A DNA stretch of 64,000 bases from Balanoglossus misakiensis (Eukaryota > Animalia > Hemichordata). The stretch spans positions 3,316,902 through 3,380,901 of the forward strand of contig CM082585.2 in the NCBI GenBank assembly GCA_040954595.2. The letters run 5' to 3'. Below the pieces are notes generated by a model. It saw only the letters and a program-made list of their open reading frames with translations. It had not been told where the DNA came from and did not search any database. The translations under genes were made by a program, and so were the position numbers. Below are positions 38,996 through 64,000 of the stretch, in pieces; the first letter of the stretch is position 1, and each line of letters opens with the position of its first letter.

Positions 38996-41900
38996 CTGTG
39001 AATAAAACATAGTTTATGTTAAATTAATTAAACCCCCAACTCCCGTTTAAAAGGGCGAGACTTTGCGAGACTTCTCATAATGGTGGGAGATTCAAACTCA
39101 CTAACAACAGAACGGACGTTGTCCATAATAGCCAGTAAATTTAGGTCTACCGATGATTTTTTTTGTCTCTAAATTCATAAAGGAGTGCATGAGTTTATTT
39201 AGCACGACATCCGCGGTTTCTGGTGCAATACAATTTGAAAATACTTTCGAAAACTGAAGATGAAATCATTTTGTCCCCGAGATATGACCGGTATATCGGT
39301 ACGATTTTCAGTTTGAATTTGCGTGATTGACGTATTATGCAAATCAAAATTGGGCACCATTGATACATTGTGGCGTTGATTGCAAAGTGTGCGTGACCTG
39401 AAAATAGGGATATGATCATACCAAATTTATCACACATGAACATGCACACGTCCATAAATTCGGTAGTTCTCTTCTTGGAAATTGTGTTGGTCCTGAAAAG
39501 GACCGTTTGTATTTGTGTACCAACCGTACAAAGTGAAGAGGGGAAAGCCTCATCAGTGCCATATTCATGCCCAACGTAAGAAACACCGGGTAAATTCGGG
39601 TAGAGACCACGGACTAGCCAAGACTGCCTATGTGTGGTAACACATTGCGAACAAAAACAAAATTCACAGGAGTTGACCGAATCTCCGGAAGCCGATGTGC
39701 TCATGGACACGGTGTTTACTTCGACGGCTGCTGCATCCGATAGACCGGCAGTGTCCCCCGCATCAAACTCGCCGGTAGCCGATACCACGCACGGTACTAA
39801 CCCCCGCGGTCGTAGCAGGTGAACTTATGTGCCCCCGCCGGTCGATGACCGAAAGCTCGGCAGAGAAAATTGCCAGTGCTTTCTCCTGCTCTTCAGTGAC
39901 CGCTATCTTGATAATTCGTGTCGACACGATAGATTCAGCTGACAACACGTTCCGCGGGTACGTAAGAACTAGCTGGATCGGTGTTTGCTTTTGGCGGGCG
40001 CGGGATGCCCATTTGAGGTCAATTGTTGTAACAATATATAGTGGCGTCAGAGCTTTAGCCACGCCCACATTTTATTGATTTTGCTCGGTAGGGCCCTACC
40101 GAGCGTTCCGCCTTTAACAGCATTTTGTGTCACGAACTGCATTATAATTGGCCCGGGTATCAATGCAACACTTCGGGACGTTACTTGAAACCACACTGTA
40201 TGCTGTCAACAAATGACACCAGTTTGAATTTCCAGAGATTCTTACAGCCATGTGCCCATATGTGGGGAAAGAAGTAAACTCTTGCATTGGGCAGCAAAAT
40301 AAATGGGTGCAGTACCCATTTATAATTTATCCTGTTCATTATTACATGAATGAGCCACTGATCAGAGGCTGGTAACAGGTTTGTGTATAGCTATCAGTCA
40401 GTCCAATGAAATAGGCCATTCTAAGTTTGAAAATAAAATCATGCAAATAATGCAAAAACAGGCTACTATTGGTGCTTTAAAGGTGTAGCTCGTCTCACAC
40501 GCATGTTCCAACTGTAGCCGCTGGTTACAGACGTTTAGCGAACAGTCAATCCCATAAGGCAGTGCTCACACAAGATGGCAGAGACCATGATCTGTGTCCG
40601 AGATCGGGAAAAGACAAGTTGGCTTGGGTGAAAAGGAGGGACAAAACCAGAATCTACTTATATCTAGCGCATGAAATATGGAAGGAAGCGAAGGCAGTCC
40701 ACTATTTGAATGCATCAAACGGAAAATTTGCTGGGAAGTTACGCGCATGCGTGTGAGACGAGCTACGCGCTTTAAGATATGATGTATGAGTCATGTTCCT
40801 TATGTTATTTGGATAAATATAAAACCACATAGTTAATGTTGGGGGTCAAAGTCAAGAAAACTGTCACCCATTATTTGAGTGAAAGGATATATCGTATTGA
40901 ATAGAGCATCCATATATACCACAGAAGTATTCAAGTACATCTACATGATGAGAAAGTAATTTGTGTACCATATATGGTGCATGACAGCAGAATAAAAATA
41001 GGAGGGGATTTAATTGCTTTATCTGTTATGGATGGTTTGTGTTTTAAAACTTGTAAAATTAATGTCTCAATAGTTTTAACTTACTTATTACTGTTCTTGT
41101 TGTCTCTCGGCTTGATTGGCATTGACATATCTGTGTAGTAGTCATAGGAACCAGGGCCAGGTCCTTGCAATCGACAAACACACACTACCATGGTGATAAT
41201 GACAATGATAAAAGCTGTTCCTAAGCAACCACTGACAATATACAACGTCTTGATGTGTTGATTGTGGTGAGGTGGCATTTCTGTCATATCAGGTCCATCA
41301 TCAAATAATTTCTCTGTTGAATAATACAATATCAAATATTTATTACAAATATACCATGCCCCCTGCTGTGTGTTAACAGAGTGAGATACTTTCATTGCAA
41401 TATGGGACTAACTATTAACATACAACATATGGGTTATTTCCATCTTGCATTTAGTTTAGATGCCTGGGACAAATTATACCGTTGCATACTGCAGTGAAAT
41501 GAACTATGTTTACATTACTAACTAGGGATTACTTTGTTTATAAAATGTCTCCCAACATTGTTGCAAAGATGTTGCCATCTGCCTATGTCTAAGCATGCAT
41601 TAATTTATTTATTAAATTTGATGTTTTTGTCTTAAGCAGATAATGGTGTTTTCAACACGTACATATTTGACTTTTGCTCTGTCGGTTGATGACAATTTAA
41701 TTTATTTGACGGTTGTCTTTTCGTAAAGCTAAATAGTAGAATTTCAATCATGTTAGTTTGGAATGTACACTCTAATTCTGGATCGAAGCCTTTCTCATTG
41801 CAAAATCGAAATAACAAAAATAAAGAAATAAAGCATGCAAAAAAATAGAGAAATCCATAAAAAAGTAAGAAAGAAATAAAGAAAATCAAATATATATAGA

Positions 41901-44900
41901 GAAAAATGAAGCCAACAAGGAACAAAACAGACTAGATATAAATATTTATTATTATTACCTTCACAAGTAGCTCCTGTGTATTGGGACGTACAGTAGCATT
42001 TATAACCATTGACCAAGTCTCTACAGATGCCACCATTATGACAAGGATTGGGTGAACAGTCATTCATATTGATTTCACACCTTACACCTGCAATCAATGA
42101 CCATATTTTGTAGGTTTTAGAAAATAAAGTGGTAACTCTTATGTTACCGTGGTTGCTCGGGTAAGAGCCCCGGGTGCTGCGTCCCCAAATTAACAAAAAA
42201 AAACAGGGGGGGGGGGGGGGGGATTTGCCAGGACACCACCTCGACTTTTATGCAAATGAGGGGCCTAGGGACATGAGGAAGGGGTGAATAATGATGCAAT
42301 AACATGGCAAAACATTTCATGGTCAAAAAATGTACTTTATTAAATAATAAAAAGTTTTTTTCCCATAAATCAAATACAGAAAACATATTACAGTCGCCGC
42401 CGTTTAATCGGGACACCATGGGCGCAGACAAAACATCCCGTTTAAACCGGAACATTGGTAAATGGTCGATCCCACCCATGCATGTTCACCTTACATGCTA
42501 TTGTTTACTTAGACGTCGACGCACGCACATAAATACATTTATCTTTATGTGTAGTTTTCTGAACAAAATGATTCATCGGCATCATGGAAATCATGCCTTT
42601 CTCTACCAGAATTTTTGAGTGGATCTTCCAATTTTGGGTGTTTCGCGTCGAGGACGGACTGAAGAGGATCCATGCGGCCGCTTTGGAAAGCTCCCCGGTG
42701 ACCTCATACGCGGCAGCGCGTCCATCTAAGTGATCGTTGAATTCGAGGCACGGTCCCGAGGGACCTGTCTGAGGTCATGTTTTCTAGAGCGGCTATAACT
42801 CAGCGTGGTCAGTCGGCCGTCGTGGGTACGATAATCAGCACAAAAGTCAATCATCATATGGAAATTGTTTGCCGTCACAGACGTTTTTTTTTTATTCTCA
42901 CATTTAGTGACTTTGGGGATGAAAATCCGCCTTTTTGCATTGCTCTTTATTACATTTCCAAGAATTTAATGGGTATTTGGCCGAGGGAGGGGGGGGGGGG
43001 GGGGGGGGCTACCGGATATAACCTCAAAATTCAAATGGGCCCTAACAGTCAGATCGCACGGCATTCATTAACATATGCAAATGAAGAAAGTACTTCAAAC
43101 CATGTAGCCGTTAGAGTGGGCCCCGCTGAAGGGTCGCGAAATAGGCCATTTTTTTACTCGATATTATAGAGCTGTTTTCAGGCGATGTGGATTATTTTAA
43201 GACAAAACCGTGGATTCACTTGAAGGTAGGTATACTGGATTGTTACTGAATGATTTTTTGGCAACTTCTGTCGAGTAGTTTCTTTGTAATCACGAAATTT
43301 CTGACGACTGTGAAAAAACACATAGCGTTGACATCCTCTCGATTATTTTTAAGCTGACCGTTACACATGGATTTTACCACGAAATTTCAAACTTTTATCA
43401 AAATATAGACATCAAACTCCCTCTCTTTGAGTTTTCATTCACTTCCAAGCTTTGATAGTGACGATATGACCAGTTCAATTTTGTTTACCTTTCAACCTGT
43501 GAGCGCCATTTTGTTTACTTTTCAACCCGTGAGCGCCACTTCTTCTGCAAAATGGCGGGAGAAGACAGCATGCATGTGTACGTATATACGCTGGCGCAGG
43601 CTTGATCCTGGGTTGTACCAGCTGCGTAGTTTTCCCTCCTCTCTCGTGCGAAGAAATTTTGATTGCTGATATGTAATCCCGAGTTTTACTAAACCCTAAC
43701 AATTATTTTATGAAGGTTTGCCCGTCAAGGAAACTCACTTTTTTTAATTTTATTGTTCTTTCAGATTGATGAAGACTGATTTTTGTGGTGGTGGTGGTGG
43801 TGTTGCAGTTGACTGTTTTATTTTAGCTGTCTGAGTTGACAATTTATTCTGTATTTTGTTGTATTTTTAACTCTTTATCCTGTATTTTGTAGTAGTATTT
43901 TGAACACTGTTTAATAAATAAATTACTATTATTATTATTATTTATCGACCCAATGCAATGATGACAAATCGCTCGCCTTCAGACACAAATGTTGTATTTA
44001 TTGCATATATCATCGGCGAATAAAGGGAAGTGGTTTCGAAGTTACACTTGGCATTTTCGAAAAGTCTACTTATATCCCACGATGCGGAGAAAAAAATATA
44101 TACAAAATACGTCAGCTGAGCTCCTCACGAACGGTAAACCTGGCATTCTGTGCATGGGTAATCAAATATTTGTTTGTAGCCCAATGTAGGCGAACGGTGT
44201 GGAGCACCCGGGCGCGGCACTCGTGCGATTGATCGATGTTGTGTCGAAATCAGGCCAGTAATTAAGTTAAAACTTGGCTGATATGTTACCTTAGAGTGTT
44301 ATACACTATCCAGTAACTTTTACTTGACAAGTGTCTTTTAGAAACTTTTCCCCACGATAAACGTGTCGTTTCACGAGCAACGCAACACTTCCGTATTTAC
44401 AAGCCTAACATGGAGAGGTCAACGTAGGGCCTATACTTCCGGGTCATATCGTCGAACTACATCGATTATTTTTAAGCTGACCGTTACACAAGCATTTCGA
44501 GTTAATTTCTTTTCACGGATGTTGGTACCGATATTAGACCTATCTGTCACGAAAACTTGGTTAACTTCCGAGGTCGTCTTCAAATGATTTTTGGCACGTT
44601 TGTGGACGTCTCTTCCGAGGTCACCAACATACCACCGAAAACACGCTAAAAACTACTACTATTACCGACAGATTCTCATAAAATTTACGTCTGCAGTGCA
44701 AAATAGGAATCACTTTCGAAATTTATCGAGCTAGCATGGTATTTTATTGTACCACAGAGTGTAAAAATCAAGTTGAAAATCACCTTGAAAACTGGCCTAT
44801 TGCCGTCTGTTTGAAAATTAACGGTCGCTGGCTTGACGAACTTTCATATGCAAATGAGCACCGTGCGATCTGACTGCTAAAACCATGGGGGGCGTTTGTC

Positions 44901-47900
44901 CGCACAGGGGCTCTTACCCGAGCAACTACGGTAAGTAATAAAACTGAACACCTATTGCCTGGCCATGAGGGCCATAGCAGCTGTTTATTACCCCTTAGGG
45001 GCTGTGAGTTACCAGAATGTCATGCTCTTTCCCGAGGCCGTAGGCCGAGGGAAATAGCATATGATTCTGGTAACTCAGTCATGAGGCCCTAGGTGTTTTA
45101 TAATAAACCTCATGCTAACACGCAACTCTGATTGACGTGACCTGAGTCTGTGAACCGGTTTATATTTTTTCTGCTATATCCTGCGGGATTCATAGTCGAT
45201 TCTATTTACCTATCACGCGACGAATTCTGGTGAATCACGACACAGTATTAGCATGAGGTATATTATAAATATAAATACTGTTCTACTGTTCATTTTCCGA
45301 CTCGATCTTCAATGTAAATAATACAGAACAGTCCTTGGCAAATAGCATGACTCAGAAACAATCCAAAAGACAAGAGAGCTGTTCTGTGTATATATATACG
45401 TGGTACAACATGAAAGATCTAAAGTACCAACGCATATTATATTACACCAGTATATTGATGGTGTAAATCACGCTATTTGATTGGTCGAGACACGACACGT
45501 GACCGTGATATATTAGCCATATACCACAGTCATATATCATAGTCAAAGAAAATGCCTTTTAAAAATGTTTTATGCAAAGTTTCAATATACTGGCATAATA
45601 TAATAGCAATAAAACACCCCCAGCCATGGTATACCACTCGATTTTGACCAGTTCAACTCCATATACGCACTCGCTATCGCTCGTGCGTATATGTCGTGAA
45701 CTGGTCAAAATCTCGTGGTATACCATGGCTGGGGGTGTTTTATTGCTTAAATATTAACTGCTGTAGTTAACAAACACACCGATCTCACCTGTATAACCTG
45801 CCTTACAAACACACGCATACATATGTCCTAAATCTTTACAATGAGTGGCTTCATGACATGGATTGTGGTCGCACAGGTCTACTTTATTCTGGCAGTGATC
45901 ACCAGAAAATCCCAACGGACACTGACATCTGTAATCATTCACCAAGTTTTCGCAGAAGCCATCATTGAGACAAGGGTTGGACAAACACTCATCGTATTCT
46001 TGTTCACAGTGTTTCCCACTGTAGCCTGTAATGCAAAAATCAAGTGATACTGAGATATGAACGGAATGTCCTCATGTGGATATGCAGGTTTTTTCTGGGA
46101 CACCAAAGTATCAACCAGTTAGGTATCAATCCCCATGAAAAGACTATTATATAATCAATCAATCACTCATCAATAATCAATCAATCAAACAAACATAATT
46201 TATGAAGCGCCCGAATCCAAGAAGAAAAAAAAACTGTTCAATGGAAATTAGTAGAATTGGCCCACACAGTAAGCTAGTCTAAAAATATAAGTCTTCAGTT
46301 TGTTTTTTAATGTTTCCAGACTTGGTGATTGACGAATTTCTTTCTTATCATTTCCCACCGTTTGAATGTTAATTGACCTCTTTAAGGGGAGGGATTATTT
46401 AAGGAGGAATAACACTATATGGCTCATTACATGTTTGGATATCAGAATGGTGATTACATCTACAGTGATGCATAGCTCCAGTAAGCATGTAATTTCTGAA
46501 GTTATTTGTAACACACACTGAAATATCTTTGTTTTACTTGACCATGAGTGTTTAAGGAGTAGATTCCTGTGATTTATATTGCATGGAACAAGCAAAAGGC
46601 AAGAACATAAACCATAGAGGCAGTTTTGTACAAATTTGTTCTTTGATCCAACGTCCAGCCATGGGTTTCAAAAATATGCCTTTAAGCAGCAAGTTTTCCA
46701 AAGTTAAAGGGACAAAGTCTCTCTCTCGCTGCCCTTTTTCTATTAATTATGTTTGATTCAAGACACCGTTTATGTTAATGTACCGGTACATGTGTATATG
46801 TAGTGAATTAAAGTTCAACCACACACAACTTCCATCCCGTTTATAGGATATGAGAGTAAAAAATCTCGCCAAGATGAATAAATGGTAGAGACTGATTAAT
46901 CATTTTGGTGAGTTTTTCACTGTCGTGTCTACAAGCGGGATGAAAGTTGTGTGTGATCGAACGTTGATTCACTATATATCCACATGTAGAATAACATAAA
47001 CAGTGTCATGTATCAAACATAATTAATTGAAAAAGGGCAGCGAGAGAGACTTTATCCCCTTAGTGCACTTACAAGCAGTAAGTTGTTGAAGTGCAAAAAT
47101 GTGCCACATAAGCCTTACCAGGTAAACAATAGCACTGGTAGCCACTGACTTGATCCACACAAATCCCATTGATACAAGGATTGCTGACACACTCATTGAT
47201 GTTGACTTCACAGTGATAACCTGTATACCCATCTGGACATACACATGCAAAGTGGTCACCCGAATAGCCTTGCTTGACATCAACACAAGTGGAGCCATTA
47301 GCACAGGTGTGGTCAAAACAGCCATCGATCTCGTCACAGTAAGCATTTGTGAATCCCAAACAGCATTCACAACGATATGAAGCCTGTAAAACATGATTTG
47401 GTGAGAATTAAAATTATCTAATGAACCGTTAAATAAGTCTCTTGCAATTCTCTTAATACTACACAGTCTGTCTTCAATCAAAGGTATAAACCATTATATT
47501 ACATGATCGAAATTAAATTGAAGTTTATCAATGTCAACCTTAATCTGCTTATTTTTGTTAAGGATGTACGCACAGAACATAAACTTGAACACTGTGTGCA
47601 TTCATCTTTTTCCATAGGATTACATTGATAATTGCTAGAAAACTCATTTCTACTATTGTCATTTTCATGAAATTTTACACATAGCTCAAATAAAAATAAA
47701 TTCCTTGGTCAAATAAAATCGTATGGTCACCATGCTCATTTTTGAGATAAACTTCACTAAATATTTTGCACATAGACAAAGTATTGGTGAAAAATGCTGA
47801 CCCAGCAGTTTTCTTCAATTATCACTTAATTGGCGGCCTTGTATTTCGAAAACAAGCACGGTGACACCTATATTTTATTAGATTTTTATTATGCTTTAAG

Positions 47901-50900
47901 AAAGGAAAAACCAAAAGAAATGACAAAACTTTCAATTTTAATGAACATACCGTAGATTCTTAAATCATGCAGATTTTTTGGAATGACAGAAATATGTCAG
48001 TGAAGTTCATGCATGCATACACTATATAAAAGGATATGTTATATTTGAAACTTCAAGGCAACAATAGTGTACATTTGTCAGTAACATATTAGTAGACCAA
48101 TGACAGCTAGAGTATGTCATGGCCCAAGCACAAAAAGTCACGAAAGGGTACTCATGGTATGACATTTGATTATCTTCAGATCATAGTAGGCAATGGTTCA
48201 TATGAAACCAATGGAAATCCATGTTTTTCGATTTTTAAGTGCATTATGCCCAAAAATGTTTGTAGGTTCATGCCATTCAATTAAGACCCACTCCCTGTGA
48301 CCAATGACTTCCTTTGTAAGTAGTTATAAAGAGCTGTATTCTCAAATTCCCTTGCCTGTCAATAAACAGTTTTATTGGTAAAACATATTGGCATCCTCAA
48401 GCAGCAGGGACCAGAGTTGAAGTTTGCAATAATGTGCATAGGTCAATAAAGGTCAATTACAAATGTAAGTCCTCTATTCATTGAGAATGCAATCTTGCAA
48501 CATAATAAAAGCTTATCACTAAACGGCAAATAGTAAGGATATTGTACGTCATCCGCACAATACGATTTCTCCTTGTTATTAAAGTGATGAAATGTGCCGG
48601 TCTATTGAAATCTGTAGTATTGGTCAGGGAAACTTAAAATCTGGGCACAGTCAAAATTTATCAGTGGGAAGTATTATACAGCGGAACATACATCCAAAGA
48701 AAATAGGTCCTACCTACTATATATGTCAGTTCCTTTCTATAGTTTCATTCAAGATTTATTAAATTTTATTCAAGTTTATAAAGTGTGTGAGAAATCACAC
48801 GCTACTCATGACTTTAGAATGGAAAATGGTCAGACTGGATTATTTATTCACAAATATTAAACAAACAAAATGATTTGCACACACTGCTTCTGCATATGTT
48901 GTACTGGTCAAAAGAGGAACGACCACATCTAAATCTGTCTATGCTCTCACACACCGGTAATCTATGGTTTGTGAATGCAACACTAAGGTTCTTCAAACAT
49001 ACAGTAAAACCTGTCTAAACCAAACACCAAAGGTACTAAAGAAATTGTTCAGTTTGCAGGTGTCTGGTTTATAGTGAATACCTATTGCCTGGCCATGAGG
49101 GCCATAGCGGCCGTTTATTACCCACGAGGGGCTGTGAGTTACCAGAATCACATTCTATTTCCCGAGGCCGCAGGCCGAGGGAAATAGCATGTGATTCTGG
49201 TAACTCACAGTCACGAGGGGGTAAAAACGGCTGCTATGGCCCGAATATAGGCCAGGCTATAGGTGTTTTATAATAAACCTCATGCTAACAGCTGGGAAAA
49301 TCTTGCAATTTTCTCTTGAGGTTGGCAGACGACATCTTCCGCGGTGGCCATTGTGTCAAATGAAGCGACACTGATTGACGTGACCGAGTCTGCGCACTCA
49401 CGCTGGTCATGTGACGGGTTTATATTTTTTCTGCTATTTCCCTAGCGGTTCATAGTCGATTCTATTTTCCTATCACGTGACGGATTCTGGCGAATCACGG
49501 CACAGTATTAGCATGAGGTATATTATAATGGTTCTTATAACATGTACGTGATTTTATTGGGGACTGTAAAATGTGTACGGTATAGACAGGTTTCCAGATT
49601 AGACAGGGTTCAGTTAAGACAGGTTTTACTGTACTTGAAAGGATATTGCTTTTGATACTAATACAATGCAGCCAACCTTATAATTTCTAAATGACTTCAA
49701 CTAATATCCTGAGAAACATATTGGTAATTATATCAACATAAAACAAAGAGTAAATTTACCTGTGTTCTGTGAGAAACGCAGTGTCCATGGTCCATACACA
49801 TCATGCCATCAGGTGCATGTGGATATTGGCAATCATGAGGTTTTACTGTAACATTCAGTCTCAAACCAAACCTACACTGAAATAATTTACTTTCTGAAAC
49901 AGCTGCAAGACAATAAGATATTGACAAAATTATAGTTATACACCCTTATAATAATGTTCTTTAGATTTATATAACATAATATGATATGTTTGTTGTAAAG
50001 CGCCTTGATCACGAAACATTGTGGATATGTGCACTATATAAGAACGCACTATTATTACTCACTAGTATAATAGAGCTGATGCTTCTATATAATTCAATAA
50101 AAAGGGTCCACAACTATGCATGTTTTTGTGATGGTTGCAAACTTTAATTTAATGTGTCACCAAAATGTGACTCTCTGGAAACATACATATACCGGTAGGC
50201 TGACAATAGTCTCAAGGTGAAAACTGATCACATAAGCTAGCTATAAACTACATGTATTCAGTCTGTAGTAGCTAAACATTATTGAAGCATTTTTAATGTA
50301 TTGTCCACAGATATGGAAATGTTTACCTGGGAGATAATGGCATATACATTTGGTTTAGTGGTTTTATGTTAACAGCTAGTGTACACAGTACAATGCAATA
50401 TGCAAATAGAATACTTAATTTTAGTAAAACACCCCAAACAGACACTTGCAATGTTTCAATAAAAAATCCTAATAGCATACAAGAGAATGTTGCACCCATC
50501 ATCATTCTGTCAAATTTAAAAAAAGTAGATTCTACTGTTTTCAAATAACAACTGTCAACGGCTAATATGGCACATGGTGACAGAGTGATCACAGTAGTCC
50601 TTTGGGCCGTTTGTAAAGAAATGACAATACTTTCAATTTTACTGAACGTACATCCTTAATCTAGTAGATGACTACAACAAATATGCAGGACTGAAGCTGA
50701 ATGAAGATAAAGGGCATGAAATTAGGATTCTGGAAGCATGCAACAAATTATGGGTGTATTTCGTGGCCTAATAAACCTATAAAGGCATTTAATAGGTATC
50801 TATTTCGGGCATGATTAACAAAGAGCTGTAGAAGCTGAATTGCAAAAGGAAGCTAAAAATATTCCAACAATGTTGGAATCTTGGGGAAGGCCTCTATCAT

Positions 50901-53900
50901 AGTTTGGGAAATTGTTTCTGGTGCGTTGATGATAGAAATGTATCTTACAGAAAACAGCTAAGGTTTTCTTTGATTTTAAGACAGGTTTTCTTTGATTTTA
51001 AATAGGACAGAAAACAGGGAAAAGTTAATAGTCTATAATAAATAATCTAGAGAGGTGTTCAGATGATAGACACTGAGTCTACGATAAGGCTCTCAAAAGT
51101 TGATGGGCCCTAGAATTGTCAAAACTGGAGTTGAAATTTGGAGGGCTAGTCAATTGACATTATGTCATGACTCTGGAGTCTACTCTAATGGACAGACAGC
51201 TGTCACACGAAGGATCTAAGGTACTTCATGGCAAAGGAGACTATCCCCTGACACATAAATAACATCTTTGCTAGAATTACAAAAGACAGTCTAGCCCTGA
51301 CTGGCAATGCCATGCAGAGCAAGCTGTTTCCGTTTTTTCTATATTCTTCAAAAGTAGTGAGAGTTCAACAAAATCATTTGGTAAAACTGTTTTCAAATGC
51401 ATTGGTCCTGGAACACAGTCACTACCTTTTATTCCAAAATTTTGCTTTCAAACATGTAAATACCTGGAAAAACTTACAGTAAGAGAGTGTTCATGATCAC
51501 CATTTTGAAATCTCACAGAATTTGGGGAAAATCCCAAAAATTGCAGGTGGACTACTCCATAATTGTTGCTTATATAGCTAACCTAGTGCCCGGCTAAATT
51601 ATCGAGATTTCGCTGCTTGACAGCCTTTCTTTCTATCTAGAAGATATAGATTCTGCGCTTTGTTAATAATATTTCTTACCTAGGCCTGCATGAAGTTTAT
51701 ATTATTTGAACATTCACATTTCACACCCATTAAATAATAATTGTCTGTGCAATATCTTGTTTCATTTTACATGAAAAAAATACTGAACGTGTAAGAAAAT
51801 ACCCAAGATAAAAAAAAATCATATTAAGTGTAGGCAAGGCTTGTATATACCGTCTCAAATTCTATATGGAGATTGAATTATACATGTATTATCAATTAAA
51901 AATATGCTAAAATGTTACATGTATTGGTGTTATAAAGCTACATTGCCACGGCGCTTTTATTAATGAGAGTTTCAAAACTCAAAAACTCTCACAAAATTTT
52001 CTTAAATATATTCATATTCTTTAATGAATTATGTCTACAAATTGATTAAAGGGACATTAGCTGTAACTTTCAGCTTTATTTTCAGTATTTTTGTTCTCAG
52101 TTCCAATTTTGATTTCTTATTCTAGTCCCAACAGCATGCTAATATACCCAAAAACTTATCAACATATACCGGTATGTGTAACTGCCATTGTTTTTGTTGA
52201 CAAATGAATTCTCTGGACTAGCAAATAATTTTTGCACAATATACAGTGTGGAATACAGGCCTCGAAAATTTTTTTCATAACCCACTTGCCATCGGGCAAG
52301 CAAATTTTCAATTTCACTTGCCCCCCAAGAAAAGTGACTTGCCCCAACCTTTCACCATGAAAGACAACATTTACGCACTAATAAGTTTACATGCATGCAT
52401 GCATACATACATACATGTCATATTTTATTCAAACACATTACAATAAAGTTTTTCTGTTTACACATTCATGCAGTTTCATGCCTAACAGTTATTTCTGGAT
52501 CTCTGAAGTACCAGCACTAGCTGAACTATGAAGGCCATGTCCACGTACATGTTTGGTACCCCCACTACTAAGCCAATGTTCTATGGCTGGATCAGCATCA
52601 AAATTTGCAACAGACGAGTTTGGGTCCCGGTTTTTGACGGGAGGACAAATTCTCGATGGTCAGATCGACCGACTCCAAACCCCGTTTGATCGCACCATAA
52701 ACACCCAGAGCGTGCGAGTGTTCAGGTGCTTCAATGCTCACCATCACTGTCTTAGGTAGTCCGCCAGATACGTATCGCACAAACACGTTCTCTTGCTCAA
52801 TGATGCTTACGTCAGCGCTCCCATCAGCAAGTATAGAAACAAAGTTAGCCCGATGTATGTCTTCGATATGATTTCGTTTGATTACGGCAGCAATACTTCC
52901 AATAAACACGGCCGCGGCTTTATCATTATGGTAATTATTTCCGATTTCTGCTCCAATTTTGGTCAGTAACTCGCACTGGATATACATGTCCGACATCGGT
53001 TTTCCGTGTTTCGCCAGCATGAACGCGCATCCGCACTATCTCGTCGATAACGGGCTAAACATTCCAGATGCGGACGACCACTATCATGCGACTTCATTGA
53101 TTCCACGCGGAATATGTCGCAGCCATCGAAGAACGCATTCCGCTTTCCCATGGATTTTGCGATCGTCGGATACTTTAGGCAAACTTTACAGAACATTTTG
53201 TTTTCGCTGTAGGTAAGCCATGGCCACTGTTCCTCCCATTTCGGAAGGTAGTTTCTTTGGCGTTTGTCTGCATCGTAACGCTGATGCTTTGACCGTGCGT
53301 CACTTTCAGAAGCGCCCTCAGATTCAGAGAGGTCACGTCGTTTCTTTGAGTCAGTTGACCCAGATGCGTTCGATGAAAAATAACGCAAGAGACTCATGGC
53401 TGTTTTTCAAATCTCTGCCACCGTCGGCTTACGAGAGTCGTAACTGAATTTATTTTGAACCATTCTAATTTGAATTTGACTAGTTAGATCGACCATTTCA
53501 TTGGTTTTTCCAATAAAAATAGCAACTGCATCTAGCAATACGATTACGCGTAATTTGACAATGCAACAAAATCTGACAGTCGCCCATCACAATATTGCTA
53601 CACTGTATCATGACTTTATTGAAAAGAACTTTGAAAAAAATCAGTGGGCTCGTGTTTTGCATTCAAGCCGATTGCCAGCTGTGATAGCGGTAAACTCAAA
53701 GAAAGTTGACATTTCTGATAGCTGGGCATTAGCCACAACATGACCACGGTCTCCCTATCGCCGTGACACTTGCCCGTCGGGCGGCAGGAATTTTGATTTT
53801 ACTTGCCCGGACGTAAATTTCACTTGCCACGGGGGTCGGGCGGCGGGAATTTTCGAGCCCTGGGAATATACTTAAAGGTTGTGTCAATAAGTTGCATACT

Positions 53901-56209
53901 GGGCATTTTATCATGTTTCAGGGATTTGAACAAGAAACTGCAGTTAGATACACAAAACAAATGTACTGAAAACATAGCAAAAGTTATAGTTAGAAGGACA
54001 AAATCTCTCTTGCGGGCCTTTTTCTATTAATTATGTTTGATACAAGACACCGTTCATGTTATTCTACATGTACCTCAACATTCAACAACACACAACTTTC
54101 ATCCCCTTTTGTAGGATATCATTTGAGAGTAAAAATTCTGCTAAAATAAATACATGTAAATGGTAAACGTCAACACCGACTATTCATTTTGCCGAGATTT
54201 CACTATTGTGTCTACAACTTACAAGTTGGATGGAAGTTGTGTGTGGTCGAACGTTGATCACTATATATATCCACATGTATCCCCCCCCCCCCCCCCCCGG
54301 TAGACTAAAGGGTGTCTTGTATCAAATATAATTAATGGAAAAAGGGGCAGCGAGAGAGAGACTTTGTCCCTTTAATGGAGCTTTAAATGATCACTGACCT
54401 ATGAAGTAATTGGATCCCACAGCAAGGAACTGGTCATCTACAAGCACAGATTCTGAAGTGTACTCGGGGTTAATCGAAGAACCAAGATCAGCTTGACATA
54501 AATCAAAGCCTTCCACAGAGACTTTGTAATACTGGACACTAAAGGATACTCCCATATGGCCAGGAACAAACCTAGAAGAGAACAGAATTGTGAGATTCTG
54601 TATTTGTCTACATTGGAAAGATTACCCTTAAAGCCTCTATAGCTGCCAAATTTCACATTTATTTTCCTCAATAAAATACTTCAAAACTATTCCCTGTCTT
54701 TTAAAATCCTCACCATAAGGCATATTACTTGTATTTGCATCTGTTTGTCATCTCTTTGCGCCGCATAATACGATAGCTGCGTACTGTTAGTATGGAGGCT
54801 GATTAAATGGGTGTGGCACCCATTTAATATAAAGCGTGTTCAAATTGCAACATACACCCACAATCAGGCGCCGATAAGATGTTCATGTATACCTATCAGT
54901 AAGCTTATTTCGATATACCAATCTAAGTTGGAAACTAAAATCATAAAAATAATGCAAAAGTGGCAGCTCCATAGGCTTTAATACCAAAGCTACAGATCTG
55001 CTGAGAGCTGCAGATCCGATTCAGATCTATGTCAGCCAATCCACAGCGTACATGTATGCATGGTTGATCTCAGCTGTCCTTTGTTGGCTGCAGATCAAAT
55101 CGTCTCTCAGGGAATTTTTTCAAATGAGAAACAGTGATGACATTTCATAAGACCGCCAACAGCGCAGTCTGGGGTTGCAGAGTACCAGTAAAATACAGAT
55201 TGGGGGTGGGGTGGCAGACTATTGACTTCTGACCCCCTCACATAGGCTTCTTCTCCAGTATTTTTGGCTTCATTGGTATCGGTACATGCATTCTATTGAG
55301 TCGAGAGCTGACCAGATACTGACAGAAGAAGTGCAAAGATGCGATGCTGAATCGATTGTTTCGTATCAGACTGCCACAAAAGTAGAAGGAATAAATTATT
55401 ATTATTTGATTTATACATCATATGAAATATTTACCTCAACTTAACACCTTGTTGGATCTCTACTGGAGTCAGTTGGACATCAATTAAAACATCATCCGTT
55501 CCATTCACGCCAAAACAGCTTGTTTCCGAATTACAATTTTCCTGTGAGCATAATGTACAGTTAGAGATATATCATTATTTTAAATAAATTTTATTCTTGC
55601 AATTTATGGTTGATAGTTTAAAATATGATAAGTTTTTTTCTTGATCCCATGATGATGTATGGGATAAGATACAGGAATTGAATGTTATCATGCCATCGCT
55701 ATATCACAGAACACACACATACACACACATGTATGCACATCACTAACACCTAATACATCCTTACTAAAATTCATCACATAATAAACTTTATACATGCAGA
55801 GAATACTGTGCATACATTCATACCAGGAGAAGTAGAGGAAAACATAATGTAAAAAGTATATTATAATTGATGCATCGATCAAGTGTACCTTGAATACATG
55901 TACCGGTATAACTTTCAAATATCCAAGGATTCTTCTACATGGTAAATTATGAATGCTACATTACACGTAGTAGCATTATTTTTTAATCATTTACAATTTT
56001 CTCTCTCTCTCTAGCCAGAGTATCCCCTGCAAGGGTAGGTATTATCTTCAAACCCAGAACTAATTATACAGACTGAGAGATTCAATATAATTGATGAAAT
56101 GTTGCTGTTATCCTACCTTTCCATAACCCCATTCCACAGGTAAAATTGATCCAGTGAGATTGCTCATCCATAAAACTGCTCCTTCAGACAATTCTTGTTC
56201 ACAAAGTGG
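38848..56209 (-). CDS. DNER: EGF-repeat type I membrane protein: EYS-like N-terminal domain + 6 EGF + TM + DNER-like tail (5' exon(s) not identified)
   Basis: Exons in minus order: 56209-56117, 55541-55435, 54571-54399, 49902-49760, 47383-47119, 46025-45789, 42087-41959, 41313-41085, 38995-38848. All GT-AG, phases match, 1524 nt = 508 codons. Tail RPSVQAIYEITTVDYTSDPMEPLVASLKPKTV* resembles the vertebrate DNER tail. The symbol is a best-match label, not proven orthology. Confidence 0.75.
39570..40117 (-). pseudogene. Kolobok KolX-like (P2X7-ballast-like Cys-rich) gene remnant with TTAA-AGG end
   Basis: CEFCFCSQCVT..RQSWL joined directly to VRGLYPNLPGVSYVGH. Terminus CCGCCT|TTAA at 40117; opposite end not found. 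Confidence 0.4.
40481..40771. mobile_element. Kolobok-like MITE
   Basis: TTAA TSDs; ~25-bp TIR AG(G/C)..GTAGCTCGTCTCACACGCATG; internal peptide RRDKTRIYLYLAHEIWKEAK. Confidence 0.75.
41085..41313 (-). CDS. Transmembrane exon
   Basis: LYIVSGCLGTAFIIVIITMVVCVC hydrophobic helix; ttcaacag| acceptor, AA|gtaagt donor (phase 2). Confidence 0.85.
41959..42087 (-). CDS. EGF-repeat exon
   Basis: [43 protein letters not shown]; phase 1-1. Confidence 0.9.
42147..44931. mobile_element. Tc1/mariner(pogo)-like non-autonomous element with nested insertions
   Basis: 25-bp TIR CCGT(G/A)GTTGCTCGGGTAAGAGCCCC; TA TSD. Confidence 0.8.
43046..44876. mobile_element. Non-autonomous DNA transposon with 4-bp TSD (Academ-like?)
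   Basis: Perfect 16-bp TIR CAGTCAGATCGCACGG; TSD CTAA at 43042-43045 and 44877-44880. Superfamily guessed only from YR termini and TSD length. Confidence 0.7.
45605..45747. repeat. Long hairpin repeat
   Basis: gcaataaaacacccccagccatggtatacc... mirrored around the CGCTATCGCT centre. Confidence 0.8.
45789..46025 (-). CDS. EGF-repeat exon
   Basis: [25 protein letters not shown]...CKAGYT; phase 1-1. Confidence 0.9.
47119..47383 (-). CDS. EGF-repeat exon
   Basis: ASYRCECCLGFTNAYCDEIDGC...[28 protein letters not shown]; phase 0-1. Confidence 0.9.
49002..49631. mobile_element. Tigger/pogo-like MITE containing a family B insertion
   Basis: TA|CAGTAAAACCTGTCT ... AGACAGGTTTTACTG|TA. Confidence 0.75.
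49760..49902 (-). CDS. EYS/DNER-like gene exon (…CRFGLRLNVTVKPHDC…CMDHGHCVSHRTQ)
   Basis: tcttgcag| acceptor, CAG|gtaaat donor; phase 1-0. Confidence 0.8.
52256..53862 (-). mobile_element. hAT transposon relic with ZNF862-type transposase pseudogene
   Basis: 15-bp TIR CAGG(C/G)CTCGAAAATT; flanks share GGAATA (imperfect TSD). Minus ORFs 53397-52963 (TTF-type zinc finger WPWL..MFCKVC..H..H) and 53020-52598 (FVSILADGSAD..EQE..FVRY) are frameshifted and internally deleted. Inserted in a TTAA-AGGGACATTAG MITE starting at 52046 (sister copy 58424). Confidence 0.88.
54399..54571 (-). CDS. EYS/DNER-like gene exon (…YKVSVEGFDLC…LAVGSNYFI)
   Basis: ttctcttctag| acceptor, G|gtcagt donor; phase 2-1 bridges both neighbours exactly. 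Confidence 0.75.
54628..54981. mobile_element. Kolobok-like TTAA MITE (relatives near 38130-38320 and 40290-40480)
   Basis: TTAA|AGCCTCTATAGCTGCC ... GGCAGCTCCATAGGCT|TTAA. Confidence 0.65.
55435..55541 (-). CDS. EYS/DNER-like gene exon (ENCNSETSCFGVNGTDD...)
   Basis: cacag| acceptor, AG|gtaaat donor; phase 0-2. Confidence 0.7.
56117..56209 (-). CDS. EYS/DNER-like gene exon (PLCEQELSEGAVLW...VEWGYGK)
   Basis: Long pyrimidine tract, acceptor ttccatag|, donor AAG|gtagga; phase 0-0. Confidence 0.7.
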
Positions 56210-56570
56210 CTATGGAAAGAAGAAGAAGAGAATGATCAAAAACTAGCATTAGTTCTCCAAATTAAAGGGACAAAGTCTCTCTCTCGCTGCCTTTTTTCCA
56301 TTAATTATGTTTGACACAAGACACCATTTATGTTAATGTTCAACCACACACACCTTCCATCCCACTTGTAGACACGAGATTGAAAAACTCGCCAAAATGA
56401 ATAATTGGTGTTTACCATTTATTTATTTTGGCGAGATTTTTACTCTCATATCCTGTAATCAGGATGGAAGTTGTGTGTGGTTGAACGTTGATTCACTATA
56501 TAACCACATGTAGAATAACATTAACGGTGTCTTGTATCAAACATAATTAATGGGAAAGGGGCAGTCAGAG

Positions 56571-57154
56571 AAATCGCGTCAAGGACACGGTGGTCCCATT
56601 GAGGGATTACACAAGAAAAAGTCTACACCGGAGTACATGGCCATATACAGACAGACACACACATACACACATAGAGAGAGATCAATGGGCAAACACTGAC
56701 TGACCCATAAGCTGCCAATGGCATATGTACTGTACCAGTAAACTGAATAGAACAGCTGGCCTAAAAAGTTATGTAATCATGCAGGAATTTGCTGCGTATA
56801 TAAATCACAGGAGGGGGTTCCTGCCTAATTAAAACAACTCAATAAAGTAAAAACACACCACTTTGCAAAGCAATCTGACCAGTAGTTCTTTCAAGTTACT
56901 GAGTTTTGACAAAATTCACATTTTTCCAGCTAATTTCCATATTTTTGGCAATGACAACTTCATTTGAACAAACTCCCATCTACAGCCCAGCCTGCATCTG
57001 CACACCAAATATCAAGGTGATACACGCAGCGGTTTTCAAGTTTTTGATGTGGATGGACATACAGACATACATCCATCCATACATACATCCATACAGACGC
57101 AACTGATCCCATAAGGTGCCATGGTATAAATGCCTATACCAATGGGACCTAAAA
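56571..57154 (-). mobile_element. HINE-like element, copy 4 (short, reverse orientation)
   Basis: Reverse complement of both termini (gcgtcaaggacacggtggtcccatt ... ccaatgggacctaaaa) and a (CATA/CATC)n tract. Confidence 0.75.
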
Positions 57155-60100
57155 TTCGCCAAAATGAATAATCGGTGTTTACCATTTATTCATTTGGGTG
57201 AGATAATGTTTTCTCTCATATCTTATAAACGGGTTGAAAGTTGTGTGTGGTCGATATTGATTCACTATATATCCGCATTTAGAATAACATAAACGGTGTC
57301 TTGTATCCAAACATAATTAATGGAAAAGGGATGACAAGAGAGAGACTGTGTCCCTTTAAAAAGTTTTGATTTTCATTCAACCAAAATTTGTTTACTAGGG
57401 TAGTTCTGCGTGTAGCCCAGATCACTGAAAAGCCATAAAATTCCTGTACATGATACATGTATTTACTTAAAAGGAAAATGGTCTATCCATAAGTACTGGA
57501 CCAGTGATGGGAAAGTACCTATCAGTGTAATGTTTCGTCTTGAATGTATTTCGAGATATAAAATTGAGAAAGAATTGTGCAAAAGTAGGGACAGTGTACA
57601 TGTAGAAGCTTTTGCAAAGATTGCAGAGTATTGATAAATTCTTTAATTGCTATAGAGAGTATTTGTCCTGAAGATTTAGTGATATGAAACCTCCTGATAT
57701 TTTTTTAAATAAAAGAAAAAAAAGAGAAAGATGATTTTATCCCGTCTCCCAATGATGAGAAGATAATAGTAATGGCCTGGGAGTATTCATAGTATTTATT
57801 AAGTAGAGTTTGCACAGATAAGTTTTTGTCCAGGCAGGTAACTTTTTAATGGTACCAGCCCTGATGACTGTTTGCTATTTTCCACAAATTACAAATACCA
57901 TGGTAGATATAATCATCCTCATTTTTAAAGAGACAAAGTCTCTCTCTCGCTGCCCTTTTCCGTTAATTATGTTTGATACAAGACACCGTTTATGTTATTC
58001 TACATGTGGATATATAAGTGAATCAACGTTCGACATTCACACACACCTTCCATCCCACTTGTAGACACGAGAGTGAAAAACTCGCCAAAATGAATAATGG
58101 GTCTCTACCATTAATTCATTTTGGCATATCCTACAAATGAGATGGAAGTTGTGTGTGGTCGAACGTTGATTCACTATTTATCCACATGTAGAATAACATA
58201 AATGGTGTCTTATATCAAAGTATATAATTAATGGAAAAAGGGCAGCGAGAGAGAGACTTTGTCCCTTTAATCATAGGAGAAAATAAGCCTAGATGCTATG
58301 AATGAATAATTATACTATGGATGTAGTTTACAGATCCAAAATACTGCCACAGATTTGTAATCTATGTTTGAACAGAAGTATTGTATATTTTCAAGGTAAC
58401 TTTTAGCTTCCTTGCCACTGAAGTTAAAGGGACATTAGCCCGAACTTTTGGTTTTATTTTCTGTATTTTTGTTCTGTGTATCAAATAAAATTTCTTGGTC
58501 TACTCCAAACAGCATTCTAAGTTACCCAGTACAACATAGCCTGTGTAAAGGCCATTGTTATTGTTGACAAATTAATTCCAGTCCAGACTTGAATTCGAAT
58601 TTTGCACAATAATATTGCTGAACTATACACACATAGGTTGTGTCGATAAGCTGAATGCTCCAGGCATTTCATCGTGTTTCAGGAACAAGAAACTGCAGTA
58701 CATAGACAAAACAAAAATACTGAAAACACAGTTAAGTTTTTAGTAGAAATTACAATTTGTCTGTATTGGGTAAATTTAGTGAAAACATTTTTCTGTTTTC
58801 AGCAATCCAAATGAATATACAGTAGATAGTATTATAAGGTTGACAAATGTGTTTTTATATTTCTGATTGTCATAAATACCGGTATGATATCCAAATTTTT
58901 GTTCATATCCTGTTAAAATAATTTCATTCTAGAAGACAGCTCCTTATTTCACTGTCTATGACACATTTGTGAAAAAAAGGATGAGAAAATAGGGCTGCCC
59001 ATGTAACAGAATACTAGTATTAAAACAAATTGATGGTATCAAAAGATGCTTGAACATTCATCAAATGCAGCCATTAACCCCTCCAGACTCAATCTGTGCT
59101 GGACATCACCAGAAGTTTGCATGTATGGAGCTCCAAACGAGTGGAAATATAACACACATAGAGAGATCAAAACTTCCTTTTCTATTTAATACAAAAAGTT
59201 GACATATCCTGGATTGTTTTTATAATAGAAACATGAAACCAAAACTGACAATGAATGCAAACTGTTCTTCTTATCAGTGGATTTATCAGCGCCCTTTGAT
59301 ATAATATATCACACACAAAAACAGCCACTCGCGTACTAGTGCATGCATTGCATGGTTGACAGATCCTTTGACAGCCTTTCTATTTATTTTATGTTCAATA
59401 TGGAAAATGTCAGGTAGGTGAATGCATACATGGGTGTGTTGATGAAGCAATATTTACCTGTGACACGGATAGTGCCTTCCCATTTTTTCAGCCGAAATTT
59501 AACTAACATTGAGATCATGACACATTGACATTCAGATTGCTTTTGCTAAACACATTCAATGCAATCACTAAAATGCACCACTCAGCTTTCATCTTGCATC
59601 TTCACAGCAAAACATACACTCACTAACGATGAACGCAATTACCATAAATGTCCTCCATTGCGAGGTGCAGATGATTTGATCACATACGTTTACCGTATGA
59701 CGTACGTCATCAACAATCATGCAGTTGTCCAGACGTGAAATCTGATGTCAACAAATATGTTCAGAATATGCTTTCAAGATGACTTGTAAATTGCCCTAGA
59801 CATGATACAGCATAAAAAATACTTTATTTCTTCATAAGACAATATTTAGACTGCCAGGGTCACACAAAGCGGCAATTTTCAACAGTACTATTTATCAAAG
59901 GTACCAATAGTGGGATTTGAATACAGCCAGTGTAAGCTTATAATAGTTATAAGTTATACAAATGTCATGCATCACTTATAATTTTCACCTGTTTTTTTGT
60001 TTTTCAAATTCTACAAAACAAAAGGATAAAAAATTACTAGTTTCATTATGCAACACTAAATTTTCATAAATAGGCAAATTAAGATTCAATCGTGTAATGG

Positions 60101-60336
60101 AATAAATTTTAAAGATAATTAGACTGGATATTTTCCTGCCTTTCTGAACACTGGATGTGAGAGGCACGTTTTCTACTTTGTGTCCCATTATTCATTGAAC
60201 ACAAACATATTTATCAAATCCAATCACGTCTCACTCAGAAGCACGCATGACGAAAGAATTGAACCAGAAAACATCCTACAAGTTACAGCATCGACATCCA
60301 ATCTAGATTAAAATAATTTAGGACACCTATAGTTAA

Positions 60337-60723
60337 GGGGAGGGTCACCCAGGTTGATTTTTGCATAGATGTCTTCTGGGAAGTTGGTTAGCCATTACAA
60401 GTCATTTTCACCAAATACAATTCGCCCAGATTTGCTCAAATCAAAGAGAAAAAACATGAATTTACAGGGCTTCAAAATTGGGCATTCTGGGGGAAAAGCC
60501 CATGTCTGACTCAATGGTCAAGACAAAGATCATGCTGTACAATTCAATCACACTCGATGCTTTGGCACCCACAAGGCAATATTTCGAAGGTCTACAAATT
60601 CAGTTTCTATTCTTCGATTTTAGCAAAAACGGCCAACTTGTGGGTTGTGAAAACGACTTCTATAGTCTACCCAAATTCCCAGAAGACATAATATGCAAAA
60701 ATCACCCTTGGTGTCCCCTTCCT
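60337..60723. mobile_element. Kolobok-like TTAA MITE
   Basis: TTAA TSDs; ~45-bp imperfect TIR GGGGAGGGTCACCCAGGTTGATTTTTGCATA..TGTCTTCTGGGAA. Confidence 0.7.
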
Positions 60724-62093
60724 TTAAAGATTGAGAGATGTAGAAATAAGTCAAATGGAATGCGATCGGTTGAATGGGTTTTATCAGCAGCAATCGTGGT
60801 GATACCAAACTTGAGTGATTTGGGGAAAAAGATGAAAGGCAACAGCAGAAACCCCTTTTTTCAAGAAAAAAAACTTATTCATAGGCTGGTCACGTTCTCT
60901 TTTGTTAATTTACCTGAGGTAGTTTGATATTACTGTGATGTTTCTCCGGGGGATAGAATACTCAAATGCATGAGTGCGTGGCTTTGCATTGATTGATGTT
61001 CTCTACTATGAAGGCCGAAATTCCCAACACACTCCAAGCAGAACAGTCTCCTTCTATGTAGCACTTAACAAACAGGAAACTCAAAATCACCTGTCTGAAG
61101 ATTGATGAAAGATTTACGCATGAAATGTTTGCTGGGCGCTGTAGCTCTGATGCATGTCTCCATCCAGCGTAGTTCAACAAAACATTTCTTGGATGATCTA
61201 TGGCAAAGTTCCCCTGAAACTGCTTTGTTTATATAAATACTAAACCTGCTGTTGCTGGGCCAGGACTGATGCCCTATCATCAGGAGGAGTTGTTGGTTAG
61301 GGCGATGCATGTGTCAATTGGACAATAGGGAATGGCGAGGCTACTCTCTCAAGAATAGCTGTGGCAGTGTGAATAGAATTCTGACAGCCTCTAATGGCCT
61401 GGCCAATTTCAGAGTTCATGATGCCAGTGGCTCTGCTTTTCATCATTTTCTACAGATTGGGTTACTAATACTATGAAATAATGAATTGAAAAAAAATCTG
61501 CAACATAATTTAATGATCAGGGAATCTGTTACTGATGGTAAACCAACCAAATGTGTAAAAAAAAAGCAAGTAAAACGAAATAATTAATTCAACTCAAAGG
61601 ATGAAAAACTTGTATAATGAGAACACAAGATTATTTGATGAAATAACGAATTAAAAAAGTTGTTTCAAGAACACTCTGTTGCAATATGATTGACATCACT
61701 TTAATAAATTAACAGTTTGACTCAACCACTTTCTTAAAAATTAAGTCTTTGACAAAATGACAGAAATGTCTCCCCATATCGATTTTTTATCCGCACTGTT
61801 GACATAACATAATGACATCCTGTTCTACAAACCAAACTTTAAAGAAAACTGATGGTGGTTTCTGAAACATTGATTATTTAGTAAATAACAAAAATTGCCC
61901 CCAAAATACAATACTGCCATTTTAAACTTGTTTGGCACTCCCCACACACACGCACACCCACATAAAATTGTAAGCTACGACTGGAGTCAATACATACATG
62001 TATGATATCCAAATGCAAGCTCATAATATAAAACAGCTGGCCTCTAGAAGTAAACTGTAAACGTGTAAGACATCTGCTGTACACAATTGTCAG

Positions 62094-62539
62094 ACAAGCG
62101 TGAAGTTGACCTCATCCTCATCCTCAGCTTCGCCAGCCTCATCCTCATCCTCATCCTCATCCTCATCCTCAGCTTCGTGACCCAGCCTCAGCTTCGTGAC
62201 CCTTCGTGACCCCAGCCTCAGCTTCGTGACCCCAGCCTCAGCTTCGTGACCCCAGGAAGTAAACATGAAAATTATCCAAACGATCGGTAAAAAGAACAAA
62301 TGGAGTCAAAAGAAGAAATTCAATCAATTATTTAGACTATCCCATGTAAATTATTTTACCTATATCGCTTTCGCTTCTTTTAGATCACATCAGACATACG
62401 AAATTCACGATAATTTTGAAATCTTCCTGAGGTCACGAAGCTGAGTCTGAGGTCACGAAGCTGAGGATGAGGATGAGGATGAGGATGAGGCTGGCGAAGA
62501 TGAGGATGAGGATGAGGATGAGGCCAACTTCACGCTCGT
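62094..62539. mobile_element. Foldback/Mutator-like element with 9-bp TSD and tandem-repeat arms
   Basis: TSD AATTGTCAG (62085-62093, 62540-62548); TIR AC(A/G)AGCGTGAAGTTG; arms built of (CTCATC)n and CCTCAGCTTCGTGACC units. Confidence 0.85.
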
Positions 62540-63538
62540 AATTGTCAGTTATTCTCTTTCGAAGTTGGTATGTATCTTTTGGAGATAAAACGTTTTGAGG
62601 AAATACAAAATAGCAAGTAAAAAAAATCAAATTGCATCATGATAATGATATAAATCTAACAGAGAACACCCCATCAATTAACTCAATTAACTTGCAACAC
62701 AGAATTTCAAGTAAATATGCCATACAGTTGTGGAGACATGAAAACGATTCACCCAAAAATGCAAGTTTTAGCTTTTCAAAAATAATTTCAACACATCATG
62801 ATAACAACTCCCCTAGAGCCCTGCAAACCAAATTGTGAAGCAATCAAACAAACCGTTATAGGGAAATGGATCTTTTACCAAAAACATTACCTGAATTCTG
62901 CCCTCAACAAAAACAATGATTCACACTAGAACATTCTAATGAAGCCAGATTGCATAATTTAATTAATTATCATGCCTAATTTGAAGAAGATAACTGACAC
63001 TGAAGGCCAAAGCACAATAAATTCATCACTGGTGTTCTTCAATGAACTCACAGAAGAATTATGTGGGCGAGCTAGATTAGATGCACTGCAGCTTAAAAAT
63101 AAAGAATTCAGGGAAACCAATGAGCATCCAATCACTTGCATAAGGGAGAGTTTGAATCAATACATGTAGATGTGAATACCTACAAATGCAGTTACACAGA
63201 ATTCCTGAATGTACAGGTAGAGACTCAACAAGTTTGCTAAAATAAATAGACCCATGTATCAAGGAAATTGACAGTGTCGGATTTCTGGAAATTTGTAATG
63301 AGCAAATGCTCCATTAGTATGCTATCAACAAAGTAAGAGCCTAAAGAATCGAAAGGATAAACCATAGATTACGAGCGCTATAAAAAGGGAGCAAAGCCCT
63401 GCATAGACTATGGTACTACGGCCAAAATAAAAAAAATATGTGCTGTTCTGATTACCCGACCTACCGTAATTTAAACCCGCGGACCCTAAACTTTTTAGAG
63501 CTTCATAAACCCGGGAGTAAAAATAACGATTTCAATTA

Positions 63539-63720
63539 CCGTTAAAGTCATTTTATAAGTCGCAACGGTATTATAAGTTGCACCCCTTCTTTGAAAGACT
63601 TGTTTGGGAGGAGATTTTAAGGAAATGAATACAACAGAACATTGGTATTATAAGTCGCACCCCCTTTTCGGCACACACTGTCACTCAAAAAAGGTGCGTC
63701 TTATAAAATGACTTTAACGG
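63539..63720. mobile_element. Tc1/mariner-like MITE nested in a GGCC-ended element (~63417-63918)
   Basis: TA|CCGTTAAAGTCATTTTATAAG ... CTTATAAAATGACTTTAACGG|TA. Confidence 0.8.
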
Positions 63721-64000
63721 TATTCGAATCTACAAAATTCATGAAAATTTCGCGAACACGCGAGAAATGATGAAATCACGCGCATCAAGCAAGAACTATG
63801 ACGTCATTCTTCTACACTACGGCGGCCAAAGATATAAATTTCCCTACCTGCCTACGCCCTACCCTATTTTTGAAAACCATGTTAGTAATCGGAAAAGTGC
63901 ATATTTGGGGGGCCTTACGAAAGTTCAAAAAAATCATTTCAATGAGAAACTTCTAGCATACAAAACTATAGAAAGCAGTATTATGATAATTTACTTAAAT

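Follow-up and report, generated by a model that had tools for sequence, protein, structure and literature searches.

A hemichordate DNER orthologue carries an N-terminal domain, shared with EYS, that is predicted to form a copper-less cupredoxin/ephrin-like sandwich

A gene on the reverse strand of the window, the 64,000-nucleotide stretch of Balanoglossus misakiensis DNA analysed here (assembly GCA_040954595.2, contig CM082585.2, positions 3,316,902 to 3,380,901), encodes an orthologue of DNER. The reading preferred here, at a probability of roughly 0.6, is that this orthologue carries a predicted copper-less cupredoxin/ephrin-fold domain at its tip, which is likely to bind protein outside the canonical Notch and Eph interfaces. 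The gene is an ordinary DNER orthologue and no missing link; two invertebrate orthologues are already labelled DNER at NCBI. The N-terminal domain, of 145 residues, matched no Pfam family and is shared with EYS (eyes shut).

The gene model comprises ten exons (Table 1). Exons 2-5, four small exons that a preliminary description of the window had proposed to splice in phase, each have an AG acceptor and a GT donor with end phases of 0, 2, 1 and 0; the phases match, the frame is open, and it continues through five more exons down to the stop at 38848. To find exon 1, positions 56210-64000 were scanned for exons that begin with ATG, encode a hydrophobic stretch and end at a phase-0 donor; a single candidate emerged (63255-63184). 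The boundaries of exon 4 recur in 12 of 14 short database fragments, which share its start and end residues, although these fragments were picked for matching exon 4. Joined, the ten exons give 531 residues with no internal stop, and the product contains a signal peptide, the domain (residues ~26-169), six EGF repeats, one membrane helix (~435-453) and a short tail of 78 residues. Every peptide fragment quoted in the preliminary description is present in it. The ten-exon gene is real and intact and not a chance arrangement, with splice joins predicted from sequence and from orthologues.

Table 1. Exons of the DNER orthologue and other features of the window
Feature	Position	Strand	Evidence or remark
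Exon 1 (candidate): start codon and signal peptide, residues 1-24	63184..63255	-	phase-0 GT donor; 29% to Glandiceps N-terminus; least certain exon
Exon 2: start of cupredoxin/ephrin-fold domain (predicted), residues 25-55	56117..56209	-	AG/GT, phase 0-0; 61% to Glandiceps protein
Exon 3: domain residues 56-91, two-cysteine loop and invariant proline	55435..55541	-	72% to Glandiceps protein
Exon 4: domain core, residues 91-149, first cupredoxin-type cysteine and YFI strand	54399..54571	-	AG/GT
Exon 5: last domain strand (to residue 169) and first half of EGF1	49760..49902	-	73% to Glandiceps protein
Exon 6: end of EGF1 (extra cysteine), EGF2, EGF3	47119..47383	-	Pfam EGF 41.8 bits
Exon 7: EGF4 and EGF5	45789..46025	-	Pfam EGF 56.5 bits
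Exon 8: EGF6	41959..42087	-	Pfam EGF 33.5 bits
Exon 9: stalk, transmembrane helix (~residues 435-453), tail start with YxxPhi-like motif	41085..41313	-	hydropathy; Pfam DNER_C 20.5 bits
Exon 10: remainder of 78-residue tail, ending in KxKxx pattern, stop codon	38848..38995	-	92% to Ptychodera DNER
Transposon-like remnant, intron between exons 4 and 5	52598-53406	-	
MITE-like repeat copies	38414-38783, 46701-47065, 53985-54392, 56259-56574, 57151-57376, 57921-58287		
Inverted tandem blocks, intron 1	62094-62539		
Ty3/gypsy-like LTR retrotransposon	7275-11330	+	
NACHT frame	18908-21679	+	
Possible exons of NACHT gene	3652-4440, 5102-5608, 11664-12221, 13630-13980, 15988-16899		
Split LINE-like element	24756-26941	+	

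The introns and surroundings of the gene contain several repeats. A MITE-like repeat of ~300 bases with long terminal inverted repeats is present in about six copies in or near the gene, and intron 1 holds two inverted blocks of short tandem units flanking ~270 bases. Two overlapping open frames between exons 4 and 5 look like the broken remnant of a DNA transposon; one matches a C17orf113-type zinc finger (29.4 bits), and the other is without a Pfam match and is presumably hAT-like. Elsewhere, a frame of 1351 aa encodes a zinc knuckle, reverse transcriptase, RNase H and integrase, and the split LINE-like element has a reverse transcriptase match in its second frame. A single frame of 923 aa with a NACHT match (92 bits) is likely to be an NLR-type immune gene, and five further frames upstream of it, three of them near copies of each other, may be its exons.

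Orthology with DNER is indicated by several lines of evidence. Exon 4 alone retrieved a 530-aa protein of Glandiceps that is colinear with the whole product (60-83% identity over exons 2-10, 29% over the signal exon), and the N-terminal part of this protein, used as a query, picked out seven proteins among 141 candidates. These include Ptychodera and Lineus proteins named DNER at NCBI and one protein each from Antedon and Lingula. In the Lingula protein, which carries a mucin-5AC-like label, a Thr/Ser-rich stretch precedes the domain and EGF repeats are lacking; this gene model may be truncated. Ptychodera DNER is 78% identical to the window product over 529 residues, and a tblastn search with it matched, in order, all nine exons originally described. 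The N-terminal exons, said from the outset to be joined to the transmembrane exon, are in frame with it to the stop in the predicted transcript and colinear with the Glandiceps and Ptychodera proteins. The DNER-like membrane architecture that had been recognised is likewise upheld by the orthologues, by this identity and by the tree described below. The Pfam DNER_C family gave 20.5 bits, below its cut-off of 27, for both exon 9 and the Glandiceps protein, in which model positions 6-103 of 105 are covered.

Vertebrate DNER resembles the window product in being a single-pass EGF protein with the domain directly ahead of an EGF run and a tail that ends in KxKxx, and both fall on one supported branch of the tree. 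The tail has the same length as in five vertebrate DNERs. Its KxKxx pattern, which we take to resemble a COPI retrieval signal, is found in 68 of 69 vertebrate DNERs; among 22 invertebrate membrane proteins nine have it, the window product being one of them. Direct similarity of the cytosolic tail to vertebrate DNER is weak, at 6.8 bits against a 95th percentile of 1.6 and a maximum of 8.1 in 300 shuffles; with the membrane helix kept, 35 of 300 shuffles score as high, and on its own the tail is thus a weak link to vertebrate DNER. The proteins differ in the number of EGF repeats after the domain (six in the window product, eight in vertebrate DNER) and before it, where Nematostella and Hydra have three, most of the vertebrate DNERs checked have two, and the window product and seven bilaterian invertebrate orthologues have none. 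The window domain, with five cysteines, is also much less diverged than the vertebrate copy.

The N-terminal domain had been recognised as homologous to the N-terminus of EYS, and profile searching confirms this. A profile built from seven sequences, searched against 1.84 billion representatives, matched 118 proteins at E<=0.001, and among the 30 whose names were looked up were EYS of a cichlid (3025 aa, residues 30-170, E 1.6e-12), of Nematostella (E 1.1e-18) and, as a partial sequence, of a colugo. Nematostella and Actinia proteins named EYS each contain three laminin-G domains; other named matches were a Nematostella protein named DNER and membrane proteins of Hydra, annelids and molluscs, and cnidarians have both the laminin-G type and the membrane type of domain-bearing protein. 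A Xenopus versican match (E 6e-4) lay in a repeat region and was taken as false. In the 42 of 118 matches scanned with Pfam (best five families per protein), no family covered the domain; EGF, laminin-G, lectin and tail families were found elsewhere in these proteins. Direct alignment of the window domain gave 29% identity to cichlid EYS over 136 columns and 37% to Nematostella EYS over 124 columns, within a range of 29-37% over 124-136 columns for three EYS proteins. EYS shares with the window product a signal peptide followed by the domain and then EGF repeats; it differs in having laminin-G domains and no membrane helix, whereas no laminin-G match was found by Pfam in the window exons or orthologues and the window product ends, after its membrane helix, at residue 531. 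A third family with the domain, represented in Saccoglossus, Glandiceps and one unnamed protein, has about two EGF repeats and a further unannotated segment in its ectodomain, and its membrane helix leads into a tail of 150-170 residues; its two hemichordate members are unnamed in NCBI. Overall, the domain is present in cnidarians, spiralians, ambulacrarians and vertebrates, across three protein families.

The preliminary description had assumed that vertebrate DNER lacks this domain, a premise which is wrong because vertebrate DNER carries it. The search returned three weak matches (E 7e-6 to 1e-5), blind to protein names, to turtle DNER and to frog and shark fragments, the latter with a cluster mate named DNER, and the turtle stretch, used as a query, brought up 69 longer proteins, almost every one of which bears the name DNER. 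In 64 of 70 full-length sequences (these 69 and shark DNER) an invertebrate domain profile scored above 25 bits, with a range of 16-49.5 and reversed copies at or below about zero, and a broader, EYS-rich profile did so in 39 of the same 70. Profile-profile comparison of the invertebrate and vertebrate domains with HHalign gave 97.5% over 129 columns, and the window domain is 28% identical to shark DNER over 145 columns. In mouse DNER the domain occupies residues ~177-303, within a gap of ~175 residues between EGF2, which ends at 132, and EGF3, which starts at 307. Profile similarity places a diverged copy of the domain between the second and third EGF repeats of vertebrate DNER. This copy is fast-evolving, and the second conserved core cysteine is lost in 15 of 42 vertebrate rows; with the poor mouse model described below, this loss suggests that the copy may be degenerate.

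An unrooted tree of 59 selected rows (the domain and the next 85 residues, 244 columns) gave a branch with 98/90 support, on one side of which the window product stood together with bilaterian membrane proteins and eight vertebrate DNERs. The four rows named EYS, from both cnidarians and vertebrates, all lay on one side of a 99/93 branch, together with one unnamed membrane protein. The placement of cnidarian membrane proteins and the third family had support of just 91/43. On this tree, DNER-type and EYS-type proteins are best described as old paralogues that share a domain-plus-EGF unit. The earlier proposal of an ancestral receptor linking EYS to DNER therefore does not hold, as the gene groups with bilaterian DNERs and cnidarians are already represented on the EYS side. 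An evolutionary intermediate between EYS and DNER now has very little credence and is largely refuted, even though the window product has the N-terminal order of EYS and a domain better preserved than the vertebrate DNER copy. Not only does vertebrate DNER have the domain, but the laminin-G and membrane types were both already present in cnidarians, and an approximately unbiased (AU) test rejected the forcing of the window's five ambulacrarian-type rows with the 27 EYS-side rows (p-AU 0.012, for a group named after the tree was seen).

The cupredoxin/ephrin-like beta fold suggested at the outset is supported by structure prediction. AlphaFold2, run with 60 aligned rows on the domain as it occurs in Ptychodera rather than in the joined window product, returned a model with pLDDT 92 and pTM 0.85. 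Foldseek ranked ephrins at the top for this model (E 7.6e-5), with phytocyanins next, and VIA-align of the Foldseek candidates gave Z 11.1 for ephrin-A5 (rmsd 2.5, 111 aligned) and Z 9.2 for mavicyanin (rmsd 2.8, 96 of 103 aligned). Searches of solved structures by sequence, with the seven-sequence profile and with one short member, gave nothing useful, and two ESM Atlas searches yielded only leads below 0.8, including a weak ephrin cluster at 0.76. The domain profile also matched a choanoflagellate protein (E 4e-6) that is clearly plastocyanin-like at 44.8 bits and aligns to mavicyanin, and this protein is an independent sequence bridge from the domain to the phytocyanins. Mapped through it and mavicyanin, the type-1 copper ligands His, Cys and His are each kept in none of the 60 rows. 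The domain is thus predicted to be a copper-less, cupredoxin/ephrin-like sandwich. A copper-binding cupredoxin at the cell surface would agree with the fold and the phytocyanin bridge, but given the loss of all three positions scarcely any weight can be attached to it. A mouse domain model from 42 vertebrate rows alone was of low confidence (pLDDT 55.7) and had no Foldseek match at E<=0.001; ephrins ranked 1-3 of 48,161 chains against it, but with Z of only 5.6-5.9. These mouse results fit the predicted fold without proving it.

Comparison with the receptor-binding domains of ephrin-A5, A2, A1 and B2 (Z 9-11) points to a shared cell-surface module, a cupredoxin sandwich of about equal size that lacks copper; the window-type domain differs in being 14-20% identical, in a segment at the G-H loop that looks shorter and in being followed by EGF repeats. 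With the phytocyanins mavicyanin, umecyanin and plantacyanin it shares the core fold (Z 8.3-9.2), a cysteine pair and the spacing of the last strands, whereas the DNER/EYS domain has no copper ligands and is extended at its N-terminus by ~50 residues that include three further cysteines. In fish EYS a sixth cysteine lies within the domain itself; in DNER-type proteins the additional cysteine is found in the EGF that follows. Among 53 rows (six others, without a detectable EGF, were dropped), the extra EGF cysteine is present in 18 and the intradomain cysteine in 31; both occur in none and neither in four. That these positions exclude each other suggests that they are alternative partners for the N-terminal cysteine, although the pattern may reflect a single change in one lineage. 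The simpler view that the spare N-terminal cysteine always pairs with the extra EGF cysteine was rejected, as only those 18 rows have the latter.

Ephrins turned the cupredoxin fold into a binding module. In the reading preferred here, the six EGF repeats would hold the domain away from the membrane, and the domain would be the binding end, with a protein as its partner, as in ephrins. The tail, with its tyrosine and C-terminal lysine motifs, would govern sorting and recycling, not enzymatic signalling. The same domain-plus-EGF unit is carried on a secreted laminin-G scaffold in EYS and on the membrane in DNER. The suggestion of an unrecognised Notch- or Eph-type signalling molecule finds little support, as Pfam matched neither DSL nor MNNL in the exons or the seven orthologues, the N-terminal domain is predicted to fold differently from the C2/MNNL domain of Delta and Jagged, and the segment at the ephrin G-H loop looks too short. 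This loop is crucial for Eph binding and conserved in length, and 45 residues lie between C80 and Y126 of ephrin-A1 by residue numbers (both from PMC6485061). Across 59 rows, 21-35 residues (29 in the case of Ptychodera) separate the conserved cysteine from the YFI strand, 10-24 fewer than in ephrin-A1 if, as we infer, the segments are equivalent. The G-H loop is therefore probably missing from the DNER/EYS domain. An unrecognised ephrin-like ligand for Eph receptors, for which the ephrin structural matches and the ESM Atlas lead might speak, is accordingly improbable; Pfam Ephrin was also unmatched in the seven orthologues (E<=0.1), in 12 short members (E<=10) and in the 42 profile matches scanned, and the plastocyanin-like family matched one member weakly (18.2 bits).

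Action through the EGF repeats, as a non-canonical Notch ligand or modulator to which the ephrin-fold domain is accessory, is rather unlikely. The six repeats do carry O-glucose and O-fucose consensus sites, but in the window gene the domain is preceded by no EGF, and the first two EGFs of DNER are presumably the part tied to Notch binding; the missing DSL and MNNL matches weigh in the same direction. Published views diverge: DNER has been reported to affect Notch output and to act through Notch (PMC10298686), whereas direct tests on mammalian DNER found no Notch1 binding or activation, and its partner was called unknown (PMC5021350). Distinctly unlikely is a folding, spacing or glycan-display module without a specific protein partner. 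Such a role would suit the N-glycosylation sequons, three of the four in the window ectodomain lying within the domain and one on the last strand recurring in 30 of 60 rows, and it would suit the fast-evolving vertebrate copy with its lost cysteine. Against it, the domain is retained in all the animal groups and families named above, and it is outermost in the window product, in its bilaterian invertebrate orthologues and in EYS.

No description of a cupredoxin/ephrin-like domain in DNER or EYS was found in the open literature, to which the search extended; an automatic cupredoxin label may already exist in InterPro or in AlphaFold-derived domain catalogues, which, like subscription journals, lay outside it. 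The main text of PMC6485061, as far as available, makes no mention of DNER or eyes shut, and its supplements may list such proteins. The tyrosinase-linked cupredoxin treated in PMC9395347 is unrelated. EYS, a major recessive retinitis pigmentosa gene, is described as consisting of a signal peptide, EGF and laminin-G domains only (PMC8127272). The main anti-Tr autoantibody epitope has been mapped to the EGF2-EGF3 region of mammalian DNER (PMC4573944), and the mouse domain lies inside that region.

It is tempting, if at rather less than even odds, to see in the DNER and EYS domain an unnamed family of animal binding domains, the second after the ephrins to use a cupredoxin fold without copper, and one that would predate the split of cnidarians and bilaterians. 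The domain might then be where DNER truly binds its ligand, what anti-Tr antibodies recognise in folded form, and the end by which EYS binds functionally in photoreceptors, its family of receptors being yet to be found. The gene itself is ordinary, and the lasting value of the finding lies in the domain, which bears on the partner of DNER, the anti-Tr epitope and the N-terminus of EYS. As a folded domain common to both proteins, it would offer those who study DNER or EYS a well-delimited unit for expression, deletion and screening, and the hemichordate-type domain, because it is kept in a form that models well, would be a good structural stand-in.
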